Part shown: positions 1 through 48,711 of the stretch, piece after piece
How positions within the stretch are numbered: position 1 is the stretch's first letter
Layout of the letters: the number at the start of each line of letters is the position of its first letter
Source: Candidatus Omnitrophota bacterium
GTDB lineage: Bacteria; Omnitrophota; Gorgyraeia; Zapsychrales; Zapsychraceae
Length of the DNA: 64,000 nucleotides
Assembly: GCA_003528115.1 (NCBI GenBank)
Contig: DOGZ01000014.1
Coordinates: 66,466-130,465, forward strand
Reading direction: 5' to 3'
The notes under the pieces: model-generated
The model's input: the letters and a program-made list of their open reading frames with translations, nothing else
Databases searched by the model: none
Told to the model about the DNA's origin: nothing
Made by a program: the position numbers and the translations under genes

Positions 1-150
1 TCCATGCAAGCGAATATTCAGTATTTTAAGCAACGGATAAATCCATAATTTCTTTTCTAAGAAATCATCATTAAGATCCTAACTATATAGGATTATTATA
101 TTTATAATAATAAACATGATAAGAAAATCGCCGTTTTTTTATTATTTTGT

Positions 151-179
151 TTGACCAAAAAAAAATTCTTTGGTATATT
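151..179 (+). promoter_or_regulatory. sigma70-type promoter upstream of purB (-35 TTGACC 151-156, 17-nt spacer, -10 TATATT 174-179)
   Basis: Near-consensus hexamers with 17-bp spacing, ~125 nt upstream of the purB ATG in an AT-rich leader. Confidence 0.5.
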
Positions 180-306
180 AGGTGCGTTTAACTTCAGTAT
201 TTTCACGAGGTAACACGCCTTAAAGTAATATTTGGTTTTGTTAAAAAATAGCGGGTTTATCCCAGTGACTATTCCCTCCATTAATTAGAGAAAAGGAGTT
301 GCCAGT

Positions 307-1602
307 ATGATTGAACGTTATACTTTATCCAAAATGGGCAATATCTGGTCAGAAAAGCATAAGATGGAGATCATGCTTAAAATCGAAGTCCTTGCTTGTG
401 AAGCTATGTGCAAACTGGGCTTGATTCCGAAAAAGTCTTTGGAAAAGATTAAAAAGAACGCCAAATTCGATATTGATGAAGTCAAGAAACTGGAAGAAAA
501 GACCAAACATGACATTGTCGCTTTTATTAATAATGTCGGACATTATATCGGCCCGGAAGCCAGATATCTGCACATGGGGCTGACCTCCTCGGACTTGCTG
601 GACACCTCGCTTTCCGTACAGTGCGTGGAGGCCAGTGATATTCTGCTGGGCGACATTATAAAATTTTTAGCGGTTCTTAAATTGAAAGCGAAAAAATATA
701 AGGACACACCCTGCATTGCCCGTACGCACGGTGTTCACGCGGAACCCATGACTTTCGGGCTCAAACTGGCTGTATGGTATGACGAAATGAGACGCAACCT
801 TGAACGCATGGAGCAGGCGCGCGAGATGATGCGTTATGGGAAATTATCAGGCGCTGTCGGTACCTATGCCAATATTGATCCTTCCGTTGAAGAATTTGTG
901 TGCGAGAAACTGGAACTGAAACCTGTGAATATCGCCACCCAAATTATCCAGAGAGACCACCATTGTCAATTCGTCACAACCCTGGCGTTAATCGGTTCCA
1001 CCCTTAATAAAATAGCCACGGAAATCAGATTATTACAGAAAACTGAAGTCCTGGAAGTGGAAGAGCCTTTCTTTAAAGGACAGATTGGGTCCTCGGCCAT
1101 GCCGCACAAGCGCAATCCCATTGCCTGTGAGCGCATTTCCGGGTTGTCCCGTATTCTGCGGGCCAACTCCCAGGTGGCTTTTGAAAATATTTGTCTGTGG
1201 CATGAGCGGGACATCAGCCATTCGGCCGCTGAACGGATTATTCTGCCGGACAGCACCATCGCGCTTAATTACATGTTTCATAAATTGATCCCCATCATCG
1301 ACGGGCTGTTGGTTTATCCTAAAAATATGGTAGCCAGCCTGACTAAAACAAAGGGATTGATTTATTCTCAGAGGGTTTTATTAGAGTTGATGAAAAAAGG
1401 TCTCGCCCGGGAAGCCGCTTATGAAATCATCCAGCGTTGCGCCATGCAGGTCTGGCAGGAAACATCTAATTTCAAAGATATTCTTTATCGCGATCGGTTG
1501 GTGAGGAAATATTTGAAACCTAATGAAATTGATGGTTGCTTTGATATCAAATATTATACACGGCACACGGATCAAATTTTTAAAAGAGTGGGATTAAAAT
1601 AA
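307..1602 (+). CDS. purB: adenylosuccinate lyase
   Basis: 431 aa; fumarate-lyase signature GSSAMPHKRNP; first gene of a contiguous pur cluster. Confidence 0.9.
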   Translation: MIERYTLSKMGNIWSEKHKMEIMLKIEVLACEAMCKLGLIPKKSLEKIKKNAKFDIDEVKKLEEKTKHDIVAFINNVGHYIGPEARYLHMGLTSSDLLDTSLSVQCVEASDILLGDIIKFLAVLKLKAKKYKDTPCIARTHGVHAEPMTFGLKLAVWYDEMRRNLERMEQAREMMRYGKLSGAVGTYANIDPSVEEFVCEKLELKPVNIATQIIQRDHHCQFVTTLALIGSTLNKIATEIRLLQKTEVLEVEEPFFKGQIGSSAMPHKRNPIACERISGLSRILRANSQVAFENICLWHERDISHSAAERIILPDSTIALNYMFHKLIPIIDGLLVYPKNMVASLTKTKGLIYSQRVLLELMKKGLAREAAYEIIQRCAMQVWQETSNFKDILYRDRLVRKYLKPNEIDGCFDIKYYTRHTDQIFKRVGLK

Positions 1603-2306
1603 TGGAAAAAAGAAAACAGATTTACGAAGGCAAAGCCAAGATCATTTTCGAGACGGATCAGCCGGAGTATGTCATCCAGTATTTTAAAGATGACGCCACC
1701 GCTTTTAATGCCGCGAAGAAAGGCGTTATCGAGCAAAAAGGGATTATGAATAATAAAATTTCGACAAAGATTTTTGAATTCCTTCAGAGTCAGGGCGTTG
1801 AAACGCATTTTGTCAAGCACTTGAGTGACCGGGAAATGCTCATTAAGAAAGTGGAAATTGTTCCCCTGGAGGTGATCATCCGCAATAAAGCGGCGGGTTC
1901 TTTGTGCCGGTTATTGGGGCTCCCGGAAGGTCGGGCCTTTGAAACACCTATTTTAGAGTTTTGCTATAAAAATGACGCGTTGAATGATCCTTTGGTCAAT
2001 GAATATCATATTCGAGCCCTGAATTTCGCGACGGAGAAAGAAATCGCGTTTATAAAAGAAAGCACGTTTAAGATTAATGATTTGATGCGCAATTTTTTTT
2101 CCCGATTAAATCTGGAGCTCATCGACTTTAAACTGGAATTCGGAAGATATCAGGGAAAGATCATTCTGGCGGATGAGATTTCTCCGGACACGTGCCGCCT
2201 TTGGGAGACGGGGACAGGAAAGAAACTGGATAAGGATCGTTTCCGGCATGATTTGGGAAATATCGAAGAGGCTTATAAAGAGGTTTTGAGCCGCGTCACG
2301 AGTTAA
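1602..2306 (+). CDS. purC: SAICAR synthetase
   Basis: 234 aa; ATG overlaps the purB stop (TAATG); N-terminus typical of PurC (YEGKAKI...). Confidence 0.9.
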   Translation: MEKRKQIYEGKAKIIFETDQPEYVIQYFKDDATAFNAAKKGVIEQKGIMNNKISTKIFEFLQSQGVETHFVKHLSDREMLIKKVEIVPLEVIIRNKAAGSLCRLLGLPEGRAFETPILEFCYKNDALNDPLVNEYHIRALNFATEKEIAFIKESTFKINDLMRNFFSRLNLELIDFKLEFGRYQGKIILADEISPDTCRLWETGTGKKLDKDRFRHDLGNIEEAYKEVLSRVTS

Positions 2307-2499
2307 AAACTAATAATAAAAGATCATCAAGCAAGTGACGAAGTATTCGTAAGTTCACGAGTTACATGAGCTGCCGTGGGTAGATCATTTTTTATAAATG
2401 TACCAACGCGATAACTCGCCGACTCGCGACGACATATCTTTTCATCCTTCCTGCTGACTTCCGCTAATTGTGCGTAGGTCAATAACATGACATAATACG

Positions 2500-5427
2500 A
2501 TGTTCTGGCGCATTGAAATAAAATTAAAAGAGAATATTTTTGACGCCCTCGGTGCGGGGATCCATAGATCGGTCCTGGATTTGGGTATTCGGACGATTTC
2601 CGGAGTCAAGGTTATTCAGGTGTATACCATTGACGGACGGATCAGTGAAGTACAGGTTCAAACGGCCTGCAGGGAATTGCTGGCGGATCACATCACGCAG
2701 GATTATGCCTACGCGGCCTACGACCACGCCGGGGATAAAAAAGAAAGATCTTCTTCCCCCTTTTCAGCGACGGAGAGTGCCTTCAGCATTGAAACCGCGT
2801 ATAATCCGGGAGTCATGGATCCGGTCGAACGATCGACGATCAAAGGATTAAGAGACCTCGGGATTGAACCGGTCGATGCGGTGCGGACGGCCAAGAAATA
2901 TGTTCTGCGCGGGACGGCCTCGTCTAAAGAGCTGCATATCATCACGAACAAAGTCCTCTTGAACAAGCTGATTCAGCACGTGGTCCAGGAGCCTTGTCCT
3001 CAAAAGACGTTCGCCGCTTCACCGGCGCAGCGATCCTTCAACCTGATTTATGTGGATTTAATCAAAGCCGGTGTCCGGCAATTAAAAAAAATAAGCAAGG
3101 ACGGACAGCTTTACCTCAATCTTGACGAGATGACGGTGATCCAGAAATATTTTAGAAAGCTTAAACGGAATCCGACCGATTGTGAATTGGAGACCATTGC
3201 TCAAACCTGGAGCGAGCATTGTTATCACAAGACGTTCCGCGGTAATATCCGTTATCAATACCAAGAGAACGGTCAAAAGAAAACGAAGGTGATCCGCAAT
3301 CTGTTGAAATCCACCATCTTCAAGGCCACTCAAGAAATCAATAAGTCCTGGTGTGTTTCTGTTTTCCATGATAACGCGGGCGTCATTAAATTCGATAAAG
3401 ACAGCCATGTCTGTTTTAAGGTTGAGACGCACAATCATCCTTCGGCCCTCGAGCCTTATGGCGGCGCGAATACAGGGTTGGGCGGTGTGATCCGTGATAT
3501 CCTGGGGACGGGGCTTGGGGCCAAACCGATTTGCAGTACGGATGTTTTTTGTTTTGCCCCGCCGGATTTGCCTTTTAAGGATTTGCCGGCCGGGACATTG
3601 CACCCCAAGAGGATTATGAAAGGGGTCGTCAGCGGCGTGCGGGATTACGGCAATAAAATGGGAATTCCGACGGTCAATGGGGCGATCGTTTTTGATAAGA
3701 AATTTGTGGGCAATCCGTTGGTGTATTGCGGGAATGTCGGGCTGATTCCCAAGGACAGAGTCCGAAAGAAGGTGCATCCAGGAGATTTAATCGTTGTTGC
3801 CGGAGGAAAAACGGGGCGGGATGGAATTCATGGAGCGACATTTTCTTCCGGAGAATTGACCGAGCAATCGGAGGTGATTTCTTCGGGGGCGGTACAGATA
3901 GGCGATCCTATTGAGGAAAAAAAAGTCTTGGATGTCCTCCTGCAGGCGCGGGATTTAAATCTTTATACCGCAATCACGGACTGCGGAGCCGGCGGGCTCT
4001 CCAGCGCTGTCGGGGAAATGGCCAAAGAGTTGGGCGCGCGTGTTGACCTTGAGAAGGTGCCTTTGAAGTATGAAGGCTTAAGTTATATGGAAATTTGGAT
4101 CTCGGAGTCTCAAGAGCGGATGGTGCTGTCGGTCAATCCCAAAAATATTCAGAAGTTTTTGAACGTGTTTGCCTCCGAGAATGTCGAGGCCACCGTTATT
4201 GGCGCTTTTACGGGGAGTCAACGCCTCGAACTTTTTTATCAAGGCCGTCAGGTCTGTGATCTGGCCATGGGCTTTTTGCATGACGGGATTCCGAATTTGA
4301 CCAAGGAGGCCTGTTGGACCCAACCCCGCCAACGCTCCCTCAGGATTCCGGTCACGCGGGATTTGGCAAAGAAATTACGGGAAGTTCTGTCCCATTATAA
4401 CGTGTGTTCCAAGGAATCCGTGGTACGTCAGTATGACCATGAAGTGCAGGGGGGGAGTGTCATTAAGCCTTTGAGCGGTGTCAACGCCGACGGGCCGTCT
4501 GACGCCAGTGTCGTGAGGCCGAGGCTGGATTCCCTCAAGGGGATAGCTGTTTCCAACGGCATTAATCCGCGGTTTGGGATGATCGATCCTTTCTGGATGG
4601 CCGCCTCGTGCATTGATGAGGCCGTGAGGCAGATCATTGCCGTCGGTGGAGACATGGAGAAAATTGCCATCCTCGATAATTTCTGCTGGGGGAATCCGGA
4701 TAAACCGGACCGCCTGGGCAGTCTGGTGCGCGCGGCGCAGGGGTGTTATAAAACCGCGGTCGGTTATCAGGTGCCGTTTATTTCCGGTAAAGACAGTTTG
4801 TATAATGAATATACCCAAGGCAAGAAATCCATCGCCATTCCCGGGACGTTGCTCATTTCCGCGATCGGCATTATCGAGGATGTGACCCAATGCGTGACCA
4901 TGGATTTTAAAAAAGCCGGAAATGTCATTTATGTCGTCGGTGAGACAAAGGATGAATTGGGCGGATCGATTTTTCTGGCGACATTGGATTTGATCGGATC
5001 AACGGTTCCCCGGGTGGATACGGAAAAGGGAACACGGATATTCAAGGCCTTATCCCGCGCTGCGCGCAAAGGGTTTGTCCGTTCCATCCACGACTGTTCC
5101 GAAGGAGGAATAGCGGTGGCCCTGGCGGAAATGGCTTTTAGCGGCGGCTTGGGCGTGCGTGCGCGGTTGGACCGGCTTCCTTTTTACAGCGAGGAAAAGA
5201 GAGACGACAAACTGCTCTTTTCAGAATCCAATTCCCGTTTTATTGTTGAAGTGGACCCGGATCACCAGAAGAGCTTTGAACGGATTCTCAAAGATGTTCC
5301 TTTTGGAATGATGGGGCATGTCGAGGCGACCGAGGAATTTGTTGTTTATGGTTTAAACGGCGAGATTTGTATGAAAAGTTCCCTGAGGGATCTCAAGGAA
5401 TCCTGGCAGAGTCCGCTGCGAGGGTAA
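2500..5427 (+). CDS. purL: FGAM synthase II with N-terminal PurS-like domain (purS-purL fusion)
   Basis: 975 aa; first ~80 aa resemble PurS, followed by a linker and tandem AIRS/PurM-like PurL domains. Confidence 0.85.
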   Translation: MFWRIEIKLKENIFDALGAGIHRSVLDLGIRTISGVKVIQVYTIDGRISEVQVQTACRELLADHITQDYAYAAYDHAGDKKERSSSPFSATESAFSIETAYNPGVMDPVERSTIKGLRDLGIEPVDAVRTAKKYVLRGTASSKELHIITNKVLLNKLIQHVVQEPCPQKTFAASPAQRSFNLIYVDLIKAGVRQLKKISKDGQLYLNLDEMTVIQKYFRKLKRNPTDCELETIAQTWSEHCYHKTFRGNIRYQYQENGQKKTKVIRNLLKSTIFKATQEINKSWCVSVFHDNAGVIKFDKDSHVCFKVETHNHPSALEPYGGANTGLGGVIRDILGTGLGAKPICSTDVFCFAPPDLPFKDLPAGTLHPKRIMKGVVSGVRDYGNKMGIPTVNGAIVFDKKFVGNPLVYCGNVGLIPKDRVRKKVHPGDLIVVAGGKTGRDGIHGATFSSGELTEQSEVISSGAVQIGDPIEEKKVLDVLLQARDLNLYTAITDCGAGGLSSAVGEMAKELGARVDLEKVPLKYEGLSYMEIWISESQERMVLSVNPKNIQKFLNVFASENVEATVIGAFTGSQRLELFYQGRQVCDLAMGFLHDGIPNLTKEACWTQPRQRSLRIPVTRDLAKKLREVLSHYNVCSKESVVRQYDHEVQGGSVIKPLSGVNADGPSDASVVRPRLDSLKGIAVSNGINPRFGMIDPFWMAASCIDEAVRQIIAVGGDMEKIAILDNFCWGNPDKPDRLGSLVRAAQGCYKTAVGYQVPFISGKDSLYNEYTQGKKSIAIPGTLLISAIGIIEDVTQCVTMDFKKAGNVIYVVGETKDELGGSIFLATLDLIGSTVPRVDTEKGTRIFKALSRAARKGFVRSIHDCSEGGIAVALAEMAFSGGLGVRARLDRLPFYSEEKRDDKLLFSESNSRFIVEVDPDHQKSFERILKDVPFGMMGHVEATEEFVVYGLNGEICMKSSLRDLKESWQSPLRG

Positions 5428-5510
5428 CTTTTCCGCGCCACAATATTTTTTTACTTTTATGAAAGTCAGTCTGATTTAAGAAATACGGACTTTCGCGAAT
5501 GGGAGAAAGA

Positions 5511-6179
5511 ATGAAACCAAATCAAAAAGGGAAATTGATGGAGGACTTGAAAATGGAAGACCCATGGCGGGTATTTCGGATTATGGGCGAATTTGTCGAG
5601 GGATTTCATGAACTCGCGGAGATCGGGCCGGCGGTCAGCATCTTTGGATCGGCCAGGACCAAACGAACGAACGGTTTGCATGCGCAAGCGGTGAAGACCG
5701 CGCAGCTTTTAGCCAAAGAAGGCTACGCGATCATTACGGGCGGCGGTCCTGGGATTATGGAGGCCGGCAATAAAGGCGCGCTTAATGCCAAAGGACGCTC
5801 TATTGGTTTAAACATCGAACTGCCGTTTGAACAAAAACCCAACCGCTATATCAATAAACTCATTAATTTCCACTACTTCTTCTGCAGGAAAGTGATGTTT
5901 GTTAAATATGCCAAGGCCTTTGTGATTTTTCCCGGCGGTTTTGGGACCCTCGATGAACTCTTCGAGAGTCTGACCCTGATCCAGACAGGGCGGATGGGAA
6001 AATTCCCCGTCGTCTTGTTTGGTTCGCAATATTGGAGCGGCTTGGTGGACTGGCTCAAGAATACCGTGGTCAAAGAAAAGAATATCGATCCTCAAGATGT
6101 TGAGATTTTTCAGATTGTCGATACTCCGGAGGATGTTCTTAAAGCGATTCACAATTTCTACAACAATAAAAAGAAATGA
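5511..6179 (+). CDS. LOG-family (TIGR00730) nucleotide N-glycosidase / PpnN-like protein
   Basis: Motifs GGGPGIMEAGNKGA and PGGFGTLDELFE; RBS GGGAGAAAGA precedes the ATG at 5511 (alternative ATG at 5499). Confidence 0.75.
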   Translation: MKPNQKGKLMEDLKMEDPWRVFRIMGEFVEGFHELAEIGPAVSIFGSARTKRTNGLHAQAVKTAQLLAKEGYAIITGGGPGIMEAGNKGALNAKGRSIGLNIELPFEQKPNRYINKLINFHYFFCRKVMFVKYAKAFVIFPGGFGTLDELFESLTLIQTGRMGKFPVVLFGSQYWSGLVDWLKNTVVKEKNIDPQDVEIFQIVDTPEDVLKAIHNFYNNKKK

Positions 6180-6233
6180 AGCTTTCGACGAGGAGGGTGC
6201 CCCCACCGCAAGAGGCGGGGTATCCTAAGAGCC

Positions 6234-7097
6234 ATGAATGAGCAAGTCAAAGTCATTATTTTACGAACAGCCGGCACGAATTGTAACGAAGAAACGGCCT
6301 TCGCGTTTAGAAGTTGCGGGGCATGGGTGGATCAGGTCCACATTCATAAACTTTTTAACAGCTCCGTTCATTTAAAGGAGTATCACATCCTGGCCATTCC
6401 CGGCGGGTTTACGTATGGAGATGACATTGAGTCCGGCCGTATTTTGGCCAATGAATTGCGCCTGCGTCTGGGCGGGGACATCCGTCAATTTATTGAAGAC
6501 GGGAAACTTATGATCGGTATCTGCAACGGGTTTCAGGTATTGGTGAAAGCGGGACTTCTTCCGGGGCCTTTCAGTGAAGAAGAAAGACATCCCTCCACGT
6601 TTTCCCAACGCGCGACTTTGGTGAATAATGATTCGGGCCATTATGAAGACCGGTGGGTCTATTTGAAGGTCGACGGAAAGAGTGTCTGGACCCGAGGCAT
6701 AGAGCGGATGATCTACATCCCCGTCGCGCATGGGGAAGGAAAGTTTGTCCCTCGGGATCAAGACGTCCTTGCCCAGTTGCAAGGGAACGGTCAGGTCGCC
6801 TTTCGTTACTGCGGGCCAAACGGAGAAAAGCCGGAGTTTCCTCAAAATCCTAACGGATCCGTGGATGACATCGCCGGCATCACGGATAAGACGGGCCGTA
6901 TTTTGGGGCTGATGCCTCACCCTGAACGTCATTTTGTTTTTACCCAGCATCCCAGTTGGACACGGTTAGATAAAAAACAGCACTTGGGAGACGGGGCCAA
7001 GATTTTTGAAAATGGGGTGCAGTACGTGCGCAAGAACATTTTGAAAACGGCGCTAATCCCCCGTCTCCTCGCGGCGGGAACCGGCAAGGGGCAATAA
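6234..7097 (+). CDS. purQ: FGAM synthase I, glutamine amidotransferase subunit
   Basis: 287 aa; class-I GATase nucleophile elbow GICNGFQ; His/Glu present near the C-terminus. Confidence 0.85.
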   Translation: MNEQVKVIILRTAGTNCNEETAFAFRSCGAWVDQVHIHKLFNSSVHLKEYHILAIPGGFTYGDDIESGRILANELRLRLGGDIRQFIEDGKLMIGICNGFQVLVKAGLLPGPFSEEERHPSTFSQRATLVNNDSGHYEDRWVYLKVDGKSVWTRGIERMIYIPVAHGEGKFVPRDQDVLAQLQGNGQVAFRYCGPNGEKPEFPQNPNGSVDDIAGITDKTGRILGLMPHPERHFVFTQHPSWTRLDKKQHLGDGAKIFENGVQYVRKNILKTALIPRLLAAGTGKGQ

Positions 7098-7114
7098 GAA
7101 TAGGGAAGAGACAT

Positions 7115-8176
7115 ATGTTGAAACTCAAGAATATCCCGAGACGAGCGGAGGCACTCTCCTATAAATCCAGCGGGGTGGATATCGCTAAGGCGAATGCCTT
7201 TGTCAAGGCAATTGGCCCGGACATCGCCGGCACTTTAAACCCGTCGGTCATCCAGAGCAAGGGCGCTTTTGCCGGTTTGTTTTCCCTGGACCGGAAAAAA
7301 TACAAGAATCCCGTGCTGGTGTCCTCGACCGATGGGGTGGGGACGAAGCTGCTGGTCGCCAAGTCCATCGGGAAACATGACACGGTTGGGATAGATTTGG
7401 TGGCGATGAATGTCAATGACATCCTGTGCGTCGGCGCTCAACCTTTATTTTTTCTGGATTATATCGCGTGCGGAAAAGTGGATGTAAAGATTTTAAAGGC
7501 CGTGATCAAAGGGATTGCCGCCGGATGCCGTCAGGCCGGGTGCAGCCTGATCGGGGGAGAAACGGCTGAAATGCCCGGGCTGTACGCGCCCGATGAGTAT
7601 GATCTGGCCGGTTTCGCGGTGGGTGTTGTGGAGAGAAACCGGATCATCGACGGCGCGGAGATCAAGGCCGGGGACAGGCTGATCGGCCTTCCATCGAGCG
7701 GTCTGCATTCAAACGGGTTTTCTCTCGTCAGAAAGGTTTTTTCTTTAATCGAACAAAAGAAATTGGCTAAAGAGCTTTTGAAGCCGACAAGGATTTATGC
7801 TAAAGAAGTGACGGCGGTTGTCGATCAATTCCCTCCTCAAGGGAAGTCCTCCGCTGCGGGGGTCAAAGGGATTGCCCATATTACCGGCGGGGCGTTTTAT
7901 GAAAAATTGACGAAAATTCTTCCGGACGGAAAATGCTTTATTGTGGATAAAAAAAGCTGGCCGGTTCCGGAGATTTTTCAGAGGATTCAAGAAAAGGGGA
8001 ATGTCCGTGATGAGGAAATGTACCGGACGTTTAATATGGGAATTGGTTTGGCCTTTGTGTTTAATCAGGAAATCATTCCTTCGGTCAAGGCCTTCCTCGC
8101 TGGACAAAAAATTAAGCATTATGAAATCGGCGAAGTGGGTGAGGACGTCAAGAGAAAAATTATTTTTTCTTCATAA
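7115..8176 (+). CDS. purM: AIR synthetase
   Basis: 353 aa; AIRS N- and C-domain organisation; sits in the pur cluster. Confidence 0.9.
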   Translation: MLKLKNIPRRAEALSYKSSGVDIAKANAFVKAIGPDIAGTLNPSVIQSKGAFAGLFSLDRKKYKNPVLVSSTDGVGTKLLVAKSIGKHDTVGIDLVAMNVNDILCVGAQPLFFLDYIACGKVDVKILKAVIKGIAAGCRQAGCSLIGGETAEMPGLYAPDEYDLAGFAVGVVERNRIIDGAEIKAGDRLIGLPSSGLHSNGFSLVRKVFSLIEQKKLAKELLKPTRIYAKEVTAVVDQFPPQGKSSAAGVKGIAHITGGAFYEKLTKILPDGKCFIVDKKSWPVPEIFQRIQEKGNVRDEEMYRTFNMGIGLAFVFNQEIIPSVKAFLAGQKIKHYEIGEVGEDVKRKIIFSS

Positions 8177-8206
8177 GCGGCATGAAGGTGAACAGGAGAG
8201 AGGGAT

Positions 8207-9511
8207 ATGAAGGTTCTTATTGTGGGTTCAGGCGGACGGGAGCATGCCCTGGCGTGGAAGATTAAGCAAAGTCCCATGGTCAAAGAGCTTTACTGCGCTC
8301 CCGGTAATGGGGGGATCGCCCAGATTTCCGAGTGCGTGGACATCCCGGCAGAGGATATCCAGAGGCTTGTTCAATTCGCCAAGAAGAAAGCCATTGATTT
8401 AACCGTCGTCGGTCCTGAGGCCCCTTTGGTGGCCGGAATCGTGGATGTCTTTAAGAAAGAGGGATTAGCTATATTCGGGCCCAGTCAGCTCGCGGCCCAA
8501 CTGGAAGGGAGCAAGGTTTTTGCCAAAGAATTCATGCAGAAATATGACATCCCGACCGCCGCCTTTGAGTCCTTTGATGATATTCGGGAGGCGAGGGCGT
8601 TTTTGGCTAAAGCGGAATTTCCTTTGGTTATCAAGGCCGACGGTCTGGCCGCGGGAAAAGGGGTGATGATCTGTCAGAACATGGAAGAAGGCGAGGAAAG
8701 CCTGGTTCAGATGATGGAGGACAAGATTTTTCAGGAAGCCGGCCGCCGTGTGATCATCGAGGAATGTTTGAAAGGGGAGGAAGTTTCTATTTTGGCGATT
8801 AGCGACGGAAAGAATTATGTGCTCTTGGATTCTTCCCAGGATCACAAGAGAATTTTTGACGATGATTTGGGGCCGAATACCGGAGGGATGGGGGCTTATT
8901 CGCCGGCGCCTATTGTGGATGCCGAACTGTTGAGAAGGATTGATGAAAGCATTATTGGACCGGTAATCCGCGGGATGAAAAAAGAAGGCGCACCTTTTGA
9001 GGGTATTTTGTACGCGGGGCTCATGATCACCATTGAAGGCCCCAAGGTCCTGGAATTTAATGTGCGGTTTGGCGATCCTGAAACGCAGGTCATTTTACCG
9101 AGATGGAAGAATGATCTTCTGGAGATCATGCTGGCGTGCGGCGAGGGACGGCTGAATAAAGTCCAGTTGCAATGGGACCCGCGCCCGTGCGTGTGTGTGG
9201 TGATGAGTTCCGGCGGATATCCGTCCAAGTATGAAACCGGGAAAGAAATTCTTGGTTTAGAAAAAGTGCAGGGCAAGTTAGACACCATGATCTTTCACGC
9301 GGGAACCAAAAAAGAAGGGAAGAAAATCCTGACGGCCGGCGGCAGAGTCCTGGGGGTGACGGCGTTGGGACGCGATATCCTGGAGGCCATTGAGAGGGCT
9401 TATGAAGTGGTGGAACAAATCCAATTCGATCGTTGTTTTTTCAGACGGGATATCGGTTCCAAGGCGATGAAACATAAAGGGGTCAGGGCTCCGGCGGGAC
9501 GGCAAAACTAA
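8207..9511 (+). CDS. purD: phosphoribosylamine-glycine ligase
   Basis: 434 aa; ATP-grasp fold; N-terminus MKVLIVGSGGREHALAWK characteristic of PurD. Confidence 0.9.
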   Translation: MKVLIVGSGGREHALAWKIKQSPMVKELYCAPGNGGIAQISECVDIPAEDIQRLVQFAKKKAIDLTVVGPEAPLVAGIVDVFKKEGLAIFGPSQLAAQLEGSKVFAKEFMQKYDIPTAAFESFDDIREARAFLAKAEFPLVIKADGLAAGKGVMICQNMEEGEESLVQMMEDKIFQEAGRRVIIEECLKGEEVSILAISDGKNYVLLDSSQDHKRIFDDDLGPNTGGMGAYSPAPIVDAELLRRIDESIIGPVIRGMKKEGAPFEGILYAGLMITIEGPKVLEFNVRFGDPETQVILPRWKNDLLEIMLACGEGRLNKVQLQWDPRPCVCVVMSSGGYPSKYETGKEILGLEKVQGKLDTMIFHAGTKKEGKKILTAGGRVLGVTALGRDILEAIERAYEVVEQIQFDRCFFRRDIGSKAMKHKGVRAPAGRQN

Positions 9512-9530
9512 TGTAGGGAGAGGTCAGCGT

Positions 9531-10016
9531 ATGAATAATATCCAAATTGCTCTTATGATGGGAAGCCAGTCGGATCTGCCCGTGATGAAAGAGGCGGCCA
9601 AAATTCTGGAAGAATTTGATGTGTCGTATGAAATAAGGGTTCTTTCCGCGCACCGGACTCCAAAGGAGACGGCGGAGTATGCCGAACAGTTAAGGCTCCG
9701 GGGCGTGAAGGTGGTGATTTGCGGGGCCGGGGCTTCAGCCGCTTTGGCAGGGGTGGTGGCGGCGCATACGAGTTTGCCTGTGATTGGCGTGCCGATTGTC
9801 GCGACCCCTTTAAACGGAATGGACGCCTTGCTCTCGACTGTGCAAATGCCGCCGGGAGTTCCCGTGGGGGCGATGGCCATTGGGCCATCGGGGGCAAAAA
9901 ACGCGGCGCTCCTGGCTTTGCGGATTATCAGTCTTCAGGATAAGGACGTGGAGCGAAAATTGGCGGAATTTAAAGAAGAGCAAAGAAGAAAAATTCTTGA
10001 TACGGATCTGAATTGA
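9531..10016 (+). CDS. purE: N5-CAIR mutase
   Basis: 161 aa; MGSQSDLPVM and SAHRTP motifs. Confidence 0.9.
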   Translation: MNNIQIALMMGSQSDLPVMKEAAKILEEFDVSYEIRVLSAHRTPKETAEYAEQLRLRGVKVVICGAGASAALAGVVAAHTSLPVIGVPIVATPLNGMDALLSTVQMPPGVPVGAMAIGPSGAKNAALLALRIISLQDKDVERKLAEFKEEQRRKILDTDLN

Positions 10017-11077
10017 AAACAGAAATCGTTGAAGTCCATCCAGATTTTCCTGATTTAAAGAAAATAATTTATTGCGCCAAGATTATTCGTCAGGGCGGAT
10101 TGGTTATTTTCCCAACGGAAACTGTTTACGGAATTGCGGCGGATTTCTCGAATCCGCGGGCCATCCAAAGACTGCGGGAGGTCAAGGGCCGCTCCGAGGA
10201 CAAACCATTTTCTGTCTTGATTTCCCAGCGGGCGTTGATATCGAATTATACGACCAGTACGGATCCGGCCCTGTACAAATTAATTAACGCGTTTTGGCCT
10301 GGGCCATTGACCGTGGTGGTTCCGTCTAAAGAAGAGGGAAAGACGATCGGGATCCGCATGCCGGATCATAAAATCGCCTTAAGGTTAGTGCAGGAATCCC
10401 AATGCACCATTGCGGCGCCTTCGGCCAACCGGACGGGCGAAGAATCTCCGACGACATGCCAAGAGGCTTTAAAAAATTTGGACGGGTTGGTGGAAGTGGC
10501 GATTGACGGGGGCATCGCGAGAATCGGCAAAGGATCCTCGGTGGTTGACCTTGTTCAGGAAAAACCGACGGTTCTGAGGGAGGGCACGATCACGCAGGCG
10601 GACGTGGATCGTGTCACGCAAAAAAAAGGCGTTCTCTTTATCTGTACCGGCAATAGCTGCCGGTCGGTAATGGCGGAATATTTCTTGAAGAATTTGTTGA
10701 AGGATCGTGATGATGTGGAGGTGTTGTCGGCCGGCACAGGCGTTTTTTTGCGTTCAACAGCCAGCGCCGAGACGGTTGCGGTCTTAAAAGCGGAGGGGAT
10801 TGACGCCTCGCAGCATTTGTCCCAGCCGATCAGCACCGTCTTATTGAAGCAGGCGGATCTGATATTTGTGATGACCCGGGGCCATCGTCAGCAGGTTTTG
10901 GAACGTATCCCTGAAGTCGAGAAGCGGGTGTATCTCTTAAAGGAGTTTATTAAAACAGCGGGAGGGTATTCCTTTGACCTGGACATCCCTGACCCGATAG
11001 GCCGCCCCCGTGAGGCTTATGAGGAATGCCTGGCGATGATCAAAGAGGCGGTGCAGAGGATCGCGCAGCTTGTTTAG
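10013..11077 (+). CDS. L-threonylcarbamoyladenylate synthase (TsaC/Sua5/YrdC domain) fused to low-molecular-weight protein-tyrosine phosphatase
   Basis: TTG start overlaps the purE stop; N-terminal half is YrdC-like; C-terminal half carries the LMW-PTP P-loop CTGNSCRS (CX5R). Confidence 0.75.
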   Translation: MKTEIVEVHPDFPDLKKIIYCAKIIRQGGLVIFPTETVYGIAADFSNPRAIQRLREVKGRSEDKPFSVLISQRALISNYTTSTDPALYKLINAFWPGPLTVVVPSKEEGKTIGIRMPDHKIALRLVQESQCTIAAPSANRTGEESPTTCQEALKNLDGLVEVAIDGGIARIGKGSSVVDLVQEKPTVLREGTITQADVDRVTQKKGVLFICTGNSCRSVMAEYFLKNLLKDRDDVEVLSAGTGVFLRSTASAETVAVLKAEGIDASQHLSQPISTVLLKQADLIFVMTRGHRQQVLERIPEVEKRVYLLKEFIKTAGGYSFDLDIPDPIGRPREAYEECLAMIKEAVQRIAQLV

Positions 11078-11153
11078 TGGCCGCGTTACGGATGACCGTG
11101 GACAAATGCCTTAACGCGGGACTCGCCGACACGTTAACTTTTAAGGAGCTTTC

Positions 11154-11618
11154 ATGAAAATTTACATCGGAGCCGATCATCGCGGATATGATTATAAAGA
11201 GAAAATTATTAAAATACTCCAAGACCTGAAGTATAAAGTCACGGATTTCGGCGTTTATCATAAAGAAAAAGACTGCGATTATCCTGAAATCGCTTATCAA
11301 GTCGCGACCCACGTCGCTTCTACGAAAAATAGCCGGGGCATCCTCATTTGTATGTCGGGAATAGGCCAGGCCATGGCGGCCAACAAGGTGCGGGGGGCGT
11401 ATGCCGCCCTGTGTCATGACGCAGAGTCGGCTCTCTTGTCCCGTCAGCATAATAATGCCAATGTCCTTGTCCTGGGCGCGAAATTTGTCAAAGAAAAGGA
11501 CCTCAAAGACATTGTCCAGATATGGCTCACGACGGCGTTTGAAGGAGGAAGGCACCGTCGGAGGGTGAATAAGATTAAGAAAATCGAGAAAGGGATGGAT
11601 ATCCAATTCTGCCGATGA
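11154..11618 (+). CDS. rpiB: ribose-5-phosphate isomerase B
   Basis: 154 aa RpiB/LacAB family; N-terminus [15 protein letters not shown]. Confidence 0.85.
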
Positions 11619-11647
11619 AGACTATGGAACTGAACAAAGGAAAAACC

Positions 11648-12895
11648 ATGAAACATCTATCCGTGACCGATCCCGAGGTTTATCAGGCGATCGTTGAGGA
11701 AATAAAACGGCAACAGAATAATCTTGAATTAATCGCCTCAGAAAATATCGTCTCACAGGCCGTCCTCGAGGCCCAGGGGTGCGTGATGACCAATAAATAT
11801 GCCGAAGGCTACCCCGCGGCGCGCTGGTACGGGGGGTGTGAATACGCGGACGTCGTGGAGACCCTGGCGATTGAACGCGCCAAGAAGCTCTTCGGCGCAC
11901 AACATGTCAATGTTCAACCGCATTCCGGTTCGCAGGCGAATATGGCTGTTTATCTGGCGGCGCTCGAATACGGGGATACGGTGCTGGCCATGGATCTGGC
12001 CTGCGGCGGGCATTTAACACACGGATTTAAAATCAATTTCTCCGGTCGTTCCTACAATTTCGTCTCTTACAAGGTCGATCCAAAAACGGAGATGATTGAT
12101 TATGAGGAGGTTGAGGCCTTGGCCAAAGAGCATAAACCCAAAATGATTTTAGCCGGCGCTTCGGCGTATTCGAGGACGCTGGATTTTAAAAGATTCCGCG
12201 AAATTTGCGACAAGGTCGGCGCGGTTCTCTTTGTGGACATGGCGCACATCGCCGGACTGGTGGCGGCGGGCCTTCATCCTAACCCCGTGCCTTACGCGGA
12301 ATTTGTGACGACGACTACGCATAAAACACTCAGAGGCCCCCGGTCAGGCATGATCCTCTGCCAGGAGCGGTTCGCGAAGAAGATCGATTCCGCCATTTTT
12401 CCCGGCATCCAGGGCGGCCCGTTGATGCATGTCATCGCGGCCAAGGCCGTGGCGCTGAAAGAGGCCCTCAGTGAGGAGTTTAAACAGTATCAGCAGCAGG
12501 TCGTGAAAAACGCCAAGACCTTTGCTCAGGGGATGGCGGAGGCGGGGTACAGGATTGTCGCGGGCGGAACGGATAATCATCTTTTTATGGTGGATCTGCG
12601 TGGTAAAAATATCACGGGCAAAGAGGCGACGGAGGTGCTCGACAAAGTGCGCATCACGGTCAATAAGAATCTCATTCCGTTTGATCCGCAAAATTCGCGG
12701 GTGACCAGCGGTATCCGCGTCGGAACTCCGGCGGTCACCAGCCGCGGCATGAAAGAGCCGCAGATGAAAATAATCGCCGGATTGTGCGACCAGGCTATGA
12801 CGCATAAGGAAGATCCCGCTCTCCTGGCTAGGGTCAGAGCGGACGTTGAACAATTGACCAAGGCGTTTCCCATTTATCAGGAATTAGCGATGTAA
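11648..12895 (+). CDS. glyA: serine hydroxymethyltransferase
   Basis: Canonical SHMT; PLP-lysine region [12 protein letters not shown]; start taken at the ATG at 11648 (ORF is open from 11615). Confidence 0.9.
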
Positions 12896-12899
12896 GACC

Positions 12900-13376
12900 A
12901 TGAAGTGTCCCGCGTGCCATTACAATGAAACAAAGGTGATTGATTCCCGCCTCAATAGTGATGGAAGTTCCGTCCGCAGGCGCCGGGAGTGTCTGAAATG
13001 CGAGAAACGGTTTACGACGTACGAATATGTCGAGCAGGTGCCTTTGATGGTGGTTAAACGTGACGGTCGTCGCCAGCCGTTTGACCGCAAAAAAATCATT
13101 GCCGGCCTTGTGAAGGCTTGCGAAAAGCGGCCTGTCAGTATTGATAAAATGGAAGAGGTCACCAGTGAGATTGAGCGCGTCATTCAAAAGAAGTTTGACC
13201 GCGAGGTGCAGTCTAAAGATATCGGCGAGTTGATTATGGAGAAGCTCGCGGCCTTGGATGAGGTCGCGTATGTGCGCTTCGCCTCTGTGTACCGCCAATT
13301 TCGCGATGTCAATCAATTCATGAGCGAGTTGACTCTCATGCTCGATAAGGAAAAGGGTAAAAAAACAGATCATTAA
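12900..13376 (+). CDS. nrdR: transcriptional repressor NrdR
   Basis: Zn-ribbon CPACHYNETKVIDSR...CLKCEKRFTTYE followed by an ATP-cone. Confidence 0.95.
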   Translation: MKCPACHYNETKVIDSRLNSDGSSVRRRRECLKCEKRFTTYEYVEQVPLMVVKRDGRRQPFDRKKIIAGLVKACEKRPVSIDKMEEVTSEIERVIQKKFDREVQSKDIGELIMEKLAALDEVAYVRFASVYRQFRDVNQFMSELTLMLDKEKGKKTDH

Positions 13377-13406
13377 CAACAACGGCAGGATTTATCCGGG
13401 AAAACT

Positions 13407-13817
13407 ATGATTCAGGTAGAATTGAGTAAAATTATTATTGATGAAAAAAGACAAGATCAGCAGATCATTGTCCTAAAAGAAAAAAATGGCACCCGCCAGT
13501 TCCCTATCGTGATCGGCATCTGGGAGGCGTCCAGTATTAAAATGAAAATCGCGGATATTGTCCCTCCACGTCCCATGACGCACGATCTTTTGGCTGCCAC
13601 TATCAGCGGACTCCATGCCAAACTGGAACGGATGAGCATTGATAAAATGGTGAACAATACCTTTTACGCCAAATTGGAGCTTAAGACAAAAGACGGCGAA
13701 ACGTGTCTTATCGACGCCAGGCCATCAGATGCCATTGCCGTCGCTGTCCGGCTGGACGCGGATATTTTTGTTGCCGAAGATATCCTTAATAAGGTCGCTA
13801 TCTTTAAAAGCGAATAA
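13407..13817 (+). CDS. bifunctional nuclease family protein (DUF151/BFN)
   Basis: 136 aa; BFN-domain-like core (PIVIGIWEASSI...THDLL). Confidence 0.6.
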   Translation: MIQVELSKIIIDEKRQDQQIIVLKEKNGTRQFPIVIGIWEASSIKMKIADIVPPRPMTHDLLAATISGLHAKLERMSIDKMVNNTFYAKLELKTKDGETCLIDARPSDAIAVAVRLDADIFVAEDILNKVAIFKSE

Positions 13818-13924
13818 TTTTATAATTCGAGGCCAATTGTAAAAGACCCGCGACAACCCGGGCAGAACGTCTTTTATCGTTGGTCTTTTGTATTTTCCCA
13901 TTCAATAGATTTATTGTCACGACA

Positions 13925-15394
13925 ATGCTTATGCCGCTTCTGACAGAGTATCCTCAACTGAAAACGATCCGAGAGATGGCCCGTAAAAAAGGGGTGGCTA
14001 TTTATATCGTCGGCGGATTCTTGCGCGATTACCTCTTGGGTCAGTGCAAGACGGATTTTGATTTCGCCGTTGAACGAGACGCCCTGGGCTTGGCCCGAGT
14101 GTTTGCCAGAAAAATTAAAGGGGCGTTTGTCCTTCTGGATGAAGAGCGCGGTTGCGCCCGCGTCGCGAGGAAAGAAGGAGGGCAGATATACACCTTTGAT
14201 TTCGCCGACTTCCGGGCCAAGACGTTTAAAGGGGATTTGTCTCATCGCGATTTTACGATTAATACCTTGTTTGTTGATCTGGTTTCTTTGACAGGGACTG
14301 AGGAGGTGGGGGATGTCCTGCGGGACCCCGGGAATGGTTTGGCGGATTTGAAAAATCAGAAAATCCGAATGACATTTGCCAAGACGTTCGAGGAAGATCC
14401 TTTGCGGATGATGCGGGCCTTCAGCCTCAGGGCGAACCTGGGATTCCAAATAGAGGCCCGGACCCTAACGCGCATAAAAAAGGATAAGGAACGTATACGG
14501 GATGTTTCCTATGAAAGGATTCGCGATGAATTATTCAAGATCCTGGAGTCCAGCCGGACCGGCGATGTTTTGAAAGAAATGGACCGGGCGGGATTATTAG
14601 AGAAGATTATGCCGCAGGTGAAGGTGATGTTTCATTGCAAACAGGGGGGGTATCATCATTTGGATGTCTGGCCGCATTCGCTGGAGACCGTTGTTCAGGT
14701 TGACCGGATGTTGAAACAACCCAGCCTGCTTGAGGAAAAATTAAGTCATTCGGATGTCGGCCAGGATTTGCATAAGTACCTGGCAGATCCTCTCGGCGGT
14801 AATCGCAGCCGCAAGGCCCTCATCAAACTGGCCGCCCTTGTGCATGATATCGGAAAACCCGATACCCGTAAGAAAGAAAAAGAAAGGGTTTCTTTTCACG
14901 GTCATGAACGGGTGGGGCGGGATATTGTCCGGTGCATTGCCAAACTGCTGAAACTTTCAACGCAAGAACGCCACGCTTTGGAGGACATGGTTCTCTGGCA
15001 TCTTCGGCCGGGGTATTTGTCGGATTTTCAACAACCTTCCCAGCGGGCGGTCTATCGTTATTTCCGCGACGCCAAAGAGGAGGCGGCGGGAATTCTTTTA
15101 TTGTCCCTGGCGGATCAGCAGGCCACGCGCGGGCCGTTGACGAGTGAAGACGATCAGCGGCAACATGAAAAAATTTGTTTGCAATTAATGCAACAATTCT
15201 TTATCAAGAGAAGAGAGAAACCTTTTCAACGTATCATCAGCGGCGATGATTTGATCAAGACTTTGAAATTAAAACCGTCTCCGCTGTTCGGAAAGATATT
15301 AGGTGAAGTCGAGGAGAAACAGACATTGGGAGAAATCAAGACAAAACGGGAAGCGCTGGCGCTGGCGAAGAAGATGGCGCAGCCGACGCGTTAA
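13925..15394 (+). CDS. cca: CCA-adding tRNA nucleotidyltransferase / poly(A) polymerase family with HD domain
   Basis: PolyA_pol head (GGFLRDYLLG...DFDFAV) plus HD motif (ALVHDIGKP); start uncertain (ORF open from 13880). Confidence 0.8.
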   Translation: MLMPLLTEYPQLKTIREMARKKGVAIYIVGGFLRDYLLGQCKTDFDFAVERDALGLARVFARKIKGAFVLLDEERGCARVARKEGGQIYTFDFADFRAKTFKGDLSHRDFTINTLFVDLVSLTGTEEVGDVLRDPGNGLADLKNQKIRMTFAKTFEEDPLRMMRAFSLRANLGFQIEARTLTRIKKDKERIRDVSYERIRDELFKILESSRTGDVLKEMDRAGLLEKIMPQVKVMFHCKQGGYHHLDVWPHSLETVVQVDRMLKQPSLLEEKLSHSDVGQDLHKYLADPLGGNRSRKALIKLAALVHDIGKPDTRKKEKERVSFHGHERVGRDIVRCIAKLLKLSTQERHALEDMVLWHLRPGYLSDFQQPSQRAVYRYFRDAKEEAAGILLLSLADQQATRGPLTSEDDQRQHEKICLQLMQQFFIKRREKPFQRIISGDDLIKTLKLKPSPLFGKILGEVEEKQTLGEIKTKREALALAKKMAQPTR

Positions 15395-15400
15395 AGGGTA

Positions 15401-16339
15401 ATGAAAATCATAAATTTAGAATTAAGAATTATTAAAGGCGACATGACGGAGCTGGAGGTCGACGCCATTGTCAATCCATCGAATCGGGAATTGAAAATGG
15501 ATGCGGGGCTGGCGGGATGGATCAAACAGAAGGCCGGCGCGGCTGTGGAGGATGAGGCGAAAAAGAAAGGCCCGCTTGAACCGGGTAGCGTTATTTGGAC
15601 CGGGGCGGGGCGGCTCAAGTCAAAATATATCATTCATGCCGTGACGGTGGGTGGAGATGGAAGGGCGGATGAGATGACTATCCGCCGGGCGTGTGCCGGG
15701 GCGTTTGGGTGCGCCGGTGAATTAAATGTAAAATCCGTGGCCTTGCCGGCGTTGGGCTGCGGCGCGGGCGGTTTTCCGGTGGTGGGATCCGCGAAGATCA
15801 TGGCCCAGGAGACGCTTAAGTTCGCGCGGTTCGGCAACAGCACCGTACGGGAAGTGGTCTATTGTCTTAAGGACGATGAGACGTATCAGACATTTGAAAA
15901 ACAAATTTACGGTTATATCAATCATGTCCAGAATGATTTGGGTCTTGGCCCGTATGTGACTGTGGATATTATTATTGAATGGAACGAAGGGATCGTTCTG
16001 ATTGAACGGTCGAATCCTCCCTTTGGACTGGCTTTACCCGGCGGGTTCCTGGATTATGGGGAGAGCCTGGAGCAGGGGGCTATCCGTGAGGCCAAGGAAG
16101 AGACGAATATGGATCTCCTGGATTTGTGTCAGTTTCACACCTACTCGAGTCCTGACCGGGATCCGCGTTTTCAAACAGTTTCCACGGTCTTTGTGGCGAA
16201 GGGGCGCGGGACCCCGCGATTCGGCGACGACGCGAAGGGATTGCGGGTTGTGGCGGTTGAAGATCTTTTGAAACTGGACTATGCCTTTGACCACAAACAG
16301 GTGATTCAGGATTATCTGGCCTTGGTCAAGCGATTTTGA
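15401..16339 (+). CDS. macro domain (Appr-1''-p processing) fused to NUDIX hydrolase
   Basis: N-terminal macro motifs (IVNPSN..., GCGAGGFP); C-terminal NUDIX box GGFLDYGESLEQGAIREAKEETN. Confidence 0.75.
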   Translation: MKIINLELRIIKGDMTELEVDAIVNPSNRELKMDAGLAGWIKQKAGAAVEDEAKKKGPLEPGSVIWTGAGRLKSKYIIHAVTVGGDGRADEMTIRRACAGAFGCAGELNVKSVALPALGCGAGGFPVVGSAKIMAQETLKFARFGNSTVREVVYCLKDDETYQTFEKQIYGYINHVQNDLGLGPYVTVDIIIEWNEGIVLIERSNPPFGLALPGGFLDYGESLEQGAIREAKEETNMDLLDLCQFHTYSSPDRDPRFQTVSTVFVAKGRGTPRFGDDAKGLRVVAVEDLLKLDYAFDHKQVIQDYLALVKRF

Positions 16340-48465: not shown

Positions 48466-48711
48466 ATGCGTATCCCCCCTAATAAACAATTATTTTGGTT
48501 TCTTAAAGATACTGTCTCTTTAGATCTGTCTAAAACTTCAGACCTGGAGCTGTATGTACAACAGGTACTATCCAGAGGAAACCAAGAGGACGTCAAAGCC
48601 CTCTTAACTGCGGTTGATTTTGAACAATTTAAGCAAGTATTCTCAAGAATTAAACGATTTTTTCCCTGGGAGGTTCGGGCTTTTTGGGAGGATTTCATTG
48701 AAAATTATTAA
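48466..48711 (+). CDS. small hypothetical protein, candidate antitoxin of the downstream AbiEii-like gene
   Basis: 81-aa ORF whose stop overlaps the likely TTG start (~48695) of the nucleotidyltransferase gene; no recognised domain. Confidence 0.3.
   Translation: MRIPPNKQLFWFLKDTVSLDLSKTSDLELYVQQVLSRGNQEDVKALLTAVDFEQFKQVFSRIKRFFPWEVRAFWEDFIENY

Follow-up and report, generated by a model that had tools for sequence, protein, structure and literature searches.

A type-IIa LOG gene embedded in the purine biosynthesis operon of an Omnitrophota clade: conserved placement and possible role

Introduction

Why would a gene whose product is expected to take nucleotides apart lie in the middle of an operon that builds them? 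The question is raised by a 64-kb stretch of DNA from a Candidatus Omnitrophota bacterium (positions 1-64000, hereafter the window), in which a gene of the LOG family stands between the genes for the synthetase and glutaminase subunits of phosphoribosylformylglycinamidine (FGAM) synthase. An earlier note on this DNA described the gene as LOG- or PpnN-like, co-oriented and tightly spaced with its pur neighbours, and proposed that it forms a built-in valve for the degradation or balancing of purine nucleotides, or releases cytokinin-like bases. The role of bacterial LOGs outside plant-associated species is unsettled, and the control of LOGs that lack the regulatory PAG domains of PpnN is listed as an open question in a recent study of that enzyme (bioRxiv 10.1101/2025.04.13.648610); in this setting, embedding among pur genes is a modest but useful clue to both role and regulation. 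We find that the embedding is real, conserved and specific to one clade, that the protein itself belongs to a known kind (type-IIa LOG), and that its placement hints at, and does not prove, a nucleotide-balancing role. A literature search of incomplete coverage found no earlier report of a link between LOG and the pur operon.

Conservation of the purSL-LOG-purQ arrangement

The LOG protein matches TIGR00730 (147.7 bits, cut-off 96.35) and PF03641 (E 1.4e-38, 132.5 bits, cut-off 27), and the families of the flanking genes bear out its reported position between purL, here a purS-purS-purL fusion (purSL), and purQ. The string to which it belongs reads purB, purC, purSL, LOG, purQ, purM, purD, purE, a fusion of tsaC with a low-molecular-weight (LMW) phosphatase gene, rpiB, glyA and nrdR (Table 1). 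The description of LOG as co-oriented and tightly spaced stands as to the facts, LOG sharing the plus strand with purSL and purQ across gaps of 83 and 54 nt, respectively; the co-orientation itself carries little weight, because all family-matched open reading frames (ORFs) in the window lie on the plus strand. All 2-kb bins of positions 1-64000 have a positive GC skew, and the window as a whole seems to belong to a single leading-strand replichore arm.

A scan with the LOG protein across one genome per GTDB species returned 80 loci. All nine loci from the closest species (Omnitrophota, L001-L009, 64-74% identity) keep the order purB-purC-purSL-LOG-purQ-purM-purD, and the remaining 71 have no pur gene within ~10 kb of LOG; the latter comprise two further loci from Omnitrophota and one, labelled 'Planctomycetia', that groups with these, together with 68 from other phyla, among them Bacteroidota, Actinomycetota, Chloroflexota and Acidobacteriota. 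The same order is found in seven further contigs to which LOG homologues led (L099-L105) and in one from a metagenome scan (L081). All 18 distinct relatives reached via LOG keep purSL-LOG-purQ. As sampling via LOG presupposes a similar LOG, a second sample was drawn through PurQ homologues, and LOG lies directly upstream of purQ in six of the seven long contigs so obtained (L106-L108, L110-L112); in the seventh, L109, purSL is followed by purQ with no LOG between them. A metagenome scan with PurQ gave one close relative (L081), the other matches being distant PurQs without context. Downstream of LOG and purQ, the order through purM, purD, purE, the tsaC-phosphatase fusion and rpiB is repeated in L001-L009, L081 and L099-L112. 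Gene-order conservation, which the earlier note had proposed as a check on its reading, is thus extensive in both samples.

The junctions on either side of LOG differ in character. The median distance from the LOG stop to the purQ start, measured across 20 distinct loci, is 0.5 nt; the distance does not exceed 12 nt in 15 loci, and in nine the genes overlap. This is as tight as the purQ-purM junction in the same loci, whereas from the purSL stop to the LOG start the median is 29.5 nt (12 nt or less in 7/20). Insertions in the relatives gather on the purSL side, and none falls between LOG and purQ.

An independent promoter and terminator flanking the gene, together with absence of the synteny in relatives, had been put forward in the earlier note as grounds for rejecting its reading. 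No promoter-like or terminator-like sites were found in either of the two spacers flanking LOG, and the synteny is strong. A GC-rich hairpin at ~6194-6226 in the LOG-purQ spacer is not an intrinsic terminator, because it lacks a U-tract. In both spacers the RNA fold is no better than that of shuffled sequence (Table 1), and an Rfam scan of positions 1-16000 gave no match, even at E <=1, so that a riboswitch or leader RNA near LOG was rejected. The best sigma-70-like match of the region lies upstream of purB and is a candidate operon promoter by consensus match only. Membership of LOG in the pur operon is well supported by these comparisons, which suggest that LOG and the pur genes share a transcript and that translation of LOG is coupled to that of purQ in most relatives.

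The LOG reading frame (5499/5511-6179, plus strand) has two in-frame ATG codons. Of these, that at 5511 is the more probable start, as it is preceded at a distance of 5 nt by a Shine-Dalgarno-like GGGAG and, on reading the sequence, none was seen before the alternative start at 5499. Family matching of ORFs found neither a second LOG copy nor purine salvage genes in the 64-kb window.

Several further observations concern the string itself. The PurSL fusion has the architecture of large PurL minus its glutaminase domain, with two PurS-like domains at the N-terminus and PurQ encoded separately; it is kept in all relatives (961-991 aa), and LOG occupies exactly the position at which large PurL carries its fused glutaminase domain. 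The 193-nt gap between purC and purSL (2307-2499) contains a weak terminator-like hairpin (2371-2383) followed by a T-run, without an Rfam match, which may be an attenuator within the string or the point at which one transcription unit gives way to another. Among the relatives, a PIN toxin gene with small ORFs lies between purSL and LOG in L110 (2668-3767), as do orphan ORFs of 143-158 aa elsewhere (e.g. L102, 6482-6958); the small ORFs of L102 and L103 and those of L110 are mutually unrelated and belong to no family. In L104 (8703-9424) and L105 (5613-6334), purQ is separated from purM by an MNT/HEPN pair. Near-identical strains are separated by a 119-nt insertion (L099 7669-7790, also in L100 and L106, versus L101 7669): what looks like the 5' end of purQ overlaps the LOG stop (ATGA) in L099, in which the called purQ begins 119 nt later, whereas purQ of L101 starts at the overlap, a difference that may reflect local duplication or an assembly variant.

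Protein family, fold and active site

Type-II LOGs are by definition those with an additional helix at the N-terminus, through which a hexamer is built (Seo and Kim, PMC5379747). The only Pfam matches of the window LOG are PF03641 and PF18306, and in a sequence search its closest solved relatives were 5ZI9 of Streptomyces coelicolor (E 7.6e-74), 5WQ3 (Cg1261) of Corynebacterium glutamicum (E 3.1e-67) and 1WEK (TT1465) of Thermus thermophilus (E 4.9e-65), to which it is 50-55% identical over ~200 aa; type-I LOGs and PpnN match far more weakly (E 1e-10 to 1e-6, the type-I matches being at 1e-8 to 1e-10). An AlphaFold model of the monomer, built on 23 homologues (predicted local distance difference test score 80), has a Rossmann-like LOG fold and returned the same three structures as its top Foldseek matches (E ~1e-21, template-modelling score 0.82-0.88). 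Residues 17-35 (DPWRVFRIMGEFVEGFHEL) align without gaps to Asp46-Leu64 of Cg1261, and the model places a helix at 18-36. By sequence and predicted structure the protein is a canonical type-IIa (type-II) LOG and, by analogy with these relatives, would assemble as a hexamer, a trimer of dimers joined via the N-terminal alpha-1 helix. It is shorter than its solved relatives (222 aa, theirs being 260-264 aa) and lacks their long disordered N-terminal region.

The catalytic apparatus is likewise shared. Cg1261 and TT1465 hydrolyse adenosine 5'-monophosphate (AMP), releasing adenine along with ribose-5-phosphate, and lack lysine decarboxylase activity; in Cg1261, R155, K156, T175, D177 and E178 are essential, their mutation abolishing AMP hydrolysis (PMC5379747). 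In an ungapped alignment these residues correspond to R126, K127, T146, D148 and E149 of the window LOG, all of which are kept, and the glutamate that binds ribose in PaLOG (E74) and PpnN (E223) (bioRxiv 10.1101/2025.04.13.648610) has its equivalent in E84. Both motifs that the earlier note had quoted, GGGPGIMEAGNKG and PGGFGTLDELFE, are present, the latter including PGGFGTLDE at residues 141-149, with the catalytic E149 and the penultimate Asp found also in Cg1261, TT1465 and 5ZI9. Of the pocket residues, F152 and F153 of Cg1261 are matched by F123 and F124, E152 is also present, and L156 occupies the position of Met185 of Cg1261, at which TT1465 also has Leu. The PGGxGTxxE motif with E149, R126 and E84 is invariant in 23 close homologues and in 89 type-IIa sequences. 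The protein is therefore expected, by analogy with Cg1261 and TT1465, to be a phosphoribohydrolase that converts nucleoside 5'-monophosphates (NMPs) to free base and ribose-5-phosphate.

Two narrower identities were rejected. PpnN is by definition composed of PAG1 (DUF4478), a nucleosidase domain and PAG2 (DUF3412) (PMC6717881); the window protein, at 222 aa, has neither PAG domain and scores 44.9 bits against the NF038390 cut-off of 450, and the 'PpnN-like' label has to give way to that of type-IIa LOG. Against the cytokinin riboside 5'-monophosphate phosphoribohydrolase equivalog (NF058542) it reaches 53.3 bits, the cut-off being 300.

Altered specificity within the embedded clade was also considered and rejected, as a clade-specific residue scan gave no active-site change. 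Comparison of 14 embedded with 71 further type-IIa LOGs showed no difference at any catalytic or pocket position; eight positions are fixed in the embedded clade and different elsewhere, of which H121 and M162 alone are missing from its non-embedded sisters and so confined to the clade. As other type-IIa LOGs have an identical active site, what is novel is the context and not the chemistry: the window LOG is operon-internal and coupled to purQ, whereas the 71 non-embedded loci lack nearby pur genes. The embedded LOG reveals neither a new type of enzyme nor a new kind of system.

Origin and persistence of the embedded gene

Neighbour-joining of 89 type-IIa LOGs places the 18 pur-embedded tips in one clade without intruders. 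The sisters of this clade are three non-embedded LOGs of Omnitrophota type, whose neighbours (mnmG, an M48 peptidase gene, a gene for an HD-domain protein and lpxA) are unrelated genes. This topology fits one capture of LOG into the pur operon. The gene has been kept at least as well as those around it: median identity to orthologues is 72% for LOG and 64-66% for PurSL, PurQ, PurM and PurD, and purifying selection on LOG is shown by this comparison of orthologues. GC content and GC content at third codon positions (GC3) of LOG fall within the range of the neighbouring genes, on which ground recent horizontal transfer was rejected; together with the conservation, this composition marks LOG as functional and long established, not newly imported.

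A tree of purSL, purQ and purM places the LOG-less contig L109 within the LOG-bearing lineages, and L109 is basal in 0/200 bootstraps. No LOG remnant was found in L109, in which purSL (1513-4410) and purQ (4501-5313) are separated by a 90-nt spacer with GTCACAAG/CTTGTGAC inverted repeats.

Proposed role and alternative explanations

The best joint explanation of these findings, which we regard as evenly poised between right and wrong, is that a type-IIa LOG was captured once, became a co-expressed member of the pur operon, and contributes an AMP-nucleosidase-like rebalancing of nucleotides. By homology, Arg126 and Glu84 would hold the ribose hydroxyls of an NMP, and Glu149 would activate water for attack on C1', cleaving the N-glycosidic bond to yield base and ribose-5-phosphate. 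LOG would be transcribed within the purB...purE string and, in most members of the clade, coupled in translation to purQ, so that the hydrolase would be made whenever de novo purine synthesis is on. It could then serve as an overflow step that turns surplus adenine-type NMP back into base plus ribose-5-phosphate; the latter might re-enter metabolism via phosphoribosyl pyrophosphate (PRPP) or via RpiB, a product of the same string. We infer this 'purine valve', reasonably, from genomic context alone; purine balancing as its purpose, and the choice of a true substrate among the NMPs, are speculative.

A second, independent hint at ribose-5-phosphate economy may come from outside the clade. In 9-12 loci of Cytophagales-type Bacteroidota, rpiB divergently adjoins a type-IIa LOG, ~150-500 bp upstream (Table 1), an adjacency that points the same way as the pur embedding. 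Taken as comparative evidence, the clade-wide, coupled placement among pur genes would suggest that the ancestral task of LOG lay in nucleotide and ribose-5-phosphate economy and not in hormone production.

The closest functional analogy for such a valve is PpnN (YgdH) of E. coli, a (p)ppGpp-activated nucleosidase of pyrimidine and purine NMPs, which shares the PF03641 catalytic domain and the splitting of NMPs into base plus ribose-5-phosphate, and for which a role in purine homeostasis has been proposed (PMC6717881). PpnN is, however, a protein of ~450 aa, a (p)ppGpp-controlled tetramer gated by PAG1 and PAG2, and the window LOG lacks both domains; its control would come via operon co-expression and not via gating by (p)ppGpp. 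[quoted passage not shown] Amn is unrelated to LOG in fold and family, and is under allosteric control by ATP and phosphate.

Several observations weigh against a purine-balancing LOG. The hydrolysis of purine NMPs during their synthesis would amount to a futile cycle unless kinetic or allosteric gating intervenes, and AMP is a slow substrate of Cg1261 and TT1465, requiring long incubation (PMC5379747). NmYgdH of Neisseria meningitidis, which is 46% identical to the window LOG, prefers uridine monophosphate (UMP) over cytidine monophosphate (CMP), AMP and guanosine monophosphate (GMP) (PMC12500856). Nothing intrinsic to the protein points to purines, its active site matching those of 71 type-IIa LOGs with unrelated neighbours. 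The string holds the non-purine genes tsaC, rpiB, glyA and nrdR, and in relatives it has received toxin-antitoxin insertions, because of which a place inside it is not proof of shared function. Lastly, the state of L109 is, by its position in the tree, a secondary loss or relocation of LOG; as L109 is both nested and LOG-less, neither FGAM synthase nor an intact operon depends on LOG.

Much of this evidence would equally suit a historical hitch-hiker, that is, an ordinary housekeeping type-IIa LOG which landed once in the operon, is rarely removed cleanly and has no coupling to purines. Neighbour clustering revealed no universal partner of type-IIa LOG in other phyla, where, rpiB in Cytophagales aside, its neighbours are miscellaneous and lineage-specific (uvrA, a solute symporter, recR), and the sister LOGs of Omnitrophota adjoin mnmG, an M48 peptidase gene and an HD-domain gene. 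The operon tolerates MNT/HEPN, PIN and orphan ORF insertions alongside its non-purine genes, and was left undisturbed by the loss of LOG in L109. A passive passenger fits less well with retention of the same site while the core pur proteins diverged to 56-70% identity, with an accumulation of insertions on the side of purSL and none between LOG and purQ, where 15/20 loci have a junction of 12 nt or less or an overlap, or with conservation of LOG at least equal to that of the flanking enzymes. We consider the hitch-hiker unlikely, and think better of a LOG that rebalances nucleotides under operon control.

The identity of the nucleotide is a separate matter, as the documented substrates of the family include AMP, N6-prenyl-AMP, UMP, CMP, GMP and inosine monophosphate (IMP) (PMC5379747, PMC12500856, PMC6717881). 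A LOG acting on pyrimidines might cleave mainly UMP or CMP, reduce the pyrimidine pools upon pur induction and pass ribose-5-phosphate to PRPP, thereby balancing pyrimidines against purines. A pointer in this direction is NmYgdH (9US2), the fourth-best solved relative (E 3.5e-52), which is of the same size class and fold, shares PGGFGTLDE with the window LOG, and has at the position of window Q108 the residue Q97 that sets the choice between UMP and CMP (PMC12500856); the slow turnover of AMP by Cg1261 and TT1465, and the presence of rpiB in the string, would also be accommodated. The first ~30 residues, however, including the alpha-1 helix region, are not alignable between NmYgdH and the window LOG, and the pocket segment of NmYgdH reads FSRFAERK, whereas that of the window LOG reads FHYFFCRK, as in Cg1261, the S. 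coelicolor type-II LOG (ScLOGII) and TT1465, which act on AMP and isopentenyladenosine 5'-monophosphate. The Km of NmYgdH for UMP, 11.8 mM, is far above physiological levels, and in the passages of the literature covered no UMP activity was reported for true type-IIa LOGs. A pyrimidine-directed LOG seems to us improbable.

Clearance of modified nucleotides is a related alternative, in which N6-modified AMPs from tRNA turnover, namely the monophosphate of N6-isopentenyladenosine (i6A) and possibly that of N6-threonylcarbamoyladenosine (t6A), would be hydrolysed to free the modified base and reclaim ribose-5-phosphate, the place in the operon tying LOG no more than loosely to the regulation of nucleotide metabolism. 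Cg1261 co-expressed with an isopentenyltransferase (IPT) yields isopentenyladenine in E. coli (PMC5379747), LOG-like proteins are reported to favour larger modified nucleotides (bioRxiv 10.1101/2025.04.13.648610), and the 'prenyl pocket' of F123, F124, E152 and L156 is conserved. The window also encodes MiaA, which makes i6A in tRNA, and turnover of this i6A would yield N6-prenyl-AMP; the string itself includes the tsaC fusion. Yet miaA is a universal housekeeping gene 17 kb away, nothing connects Omnitrophota with either plants or cytokinin signalling, the score against the cytokinin-LOG equivalog falls far below its cut-off, and the tight coupling to purQ would be left unexplained. We hold this alternative in similarly low regard, and place the overflow of unmodified adenine-type NMPs above it.

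Lastly, LOG might hydrolyse intermediates of the pathway itself, such as 5-aminoimidazole-4-carboxamide ribonucleotide (AICAR), its succinylated precursor SAICAR or adenylosuccinate, or act as a physical partner of PurQ or PurSL. By inference only, this idea would draw on the fact that purine intermediates are all 5-phosphoribosyl N-glycosides, that adenylosuccinate is an N6-substituted AMP and so of the substrate class that LOGs favour, and that the LOG gene, which separates the genes for both subunits of a single enzyme, is coupled to purQ in translation. The embedded clade has no specific change at the active site, only H121 and M162 being unique to it, and L109 has purSL and purQ without LOG. 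To our knowledge, no member of the LOG family uses AICAR, SAICAR or adenylosuccinate, or binds FGAM synthase. We regard this as the least credible of the alternatives. A wider version, in which LOG is a dedicated part of the pathway that hydrolyses ribotides or N6-substituted AMPs of the adenylosuccinate type for overflow or proof-reading, or works stoichiometrically with PurQ, its embedding replacing the alarmone gating of PpnN, is a long shot, if a slightly shorter one. Neither displaces an operon-controlled, AMP-nucleosidase-like LOG as our preferred reading.

Other features of the window

Table 1. Coordinates of LOG, its motifs and its surroundings. Positions refer to the window except in the last row.
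Feature	Position (nt)	Strand	Details
Sigma-70-like promoter match, TTGACC-17-TATATT	151..179	+	10/12, extended TG; upstream of purB; best of region; candidate
purB	307-1602	+	First gene of conserved string; family match
purC	1602-2306	+	Second gene of conserved string; family match
purS-purS-purL fusion (975 aa)	2500..5427	+	PF02700, PF18072, 2x AIRS/AIRS_C; TIGR01736 650 bits; FGAM synthase synthetase subunit
purSL-LOG spacer (83 nt)	5428..5510	+	Fold z-score 0.04
Shine-Dalgarno-like GGGAG	5501..5505	+	5 nt before ATG 5511; read from sequence
LOG coding sequence	5511..6179	+	222 aa plus stop; type-IIa LOG; ORF list, profile, PDB and model matches
DPWRVFRIMGEFVEGFHEL	5559..5615	+	aa 17-35; equivalent of alpha-1 helix building type-II LOG hexamer
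GGGPGIMEAGNKG motif	5739..5777	+	aa 77-89; includes Glu84, predicted to bind ribose hydroxyls
FFCRK	5877..5891	+	aa 123-127; base/prenyl pocket Phe123, Phe124; catalytic Arg126; Lys127
PGGFGTLDELFE	5931..5966	+	aa 141-152; PGGxGTxxE motif; Thr146, Asp148, catalytic Glu149
LOG-purQ spacer (54 nt)	6180..6233	+	Fold -21.2 kcal/mol, z-score -1.29, not significant
purQ	6234..7097	+	FGAM synthase glutaminase subunit; PF13507 E 5.8e-80; TIGR01737; in most relatives the start touches or overlaps the LOG stop
purM, purD, purE, tsaC-LMW-phosphatase fusion, rpiB	7115..11618	+	Co-directional string continues
rpiB-LOG loci of Cytophagales-type Bacteroidota	LOG at ~10001		L016, L017, L020, L026, L030, L032, L043, L044, L045, L050, L062, L080

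Within the string, the fusion at 10013-11077 (354 aa) joins TsaC/Sua5 (threonylcarbamoyl-AMP synthase) to an LMW phosphotyrosine-phosphatase/ArsC-like domain, and a fusion of 354 aa also occurs in every relative for which gene calls were returned. Further downstream, miaA (tRNA isopentenyltransferase) at 22910-23848 is followed by hflX, to 25107; at 17 kb from LOG the pair is unlinked to it. An AbiEii-family nucleotidyltransferase toxin gene (48614-49378) lies between polysaccharide-biosynthesis genes, in a stretch whose GC content is low (0.40 against 0.48 for the window), and may be a small mobile insertion.

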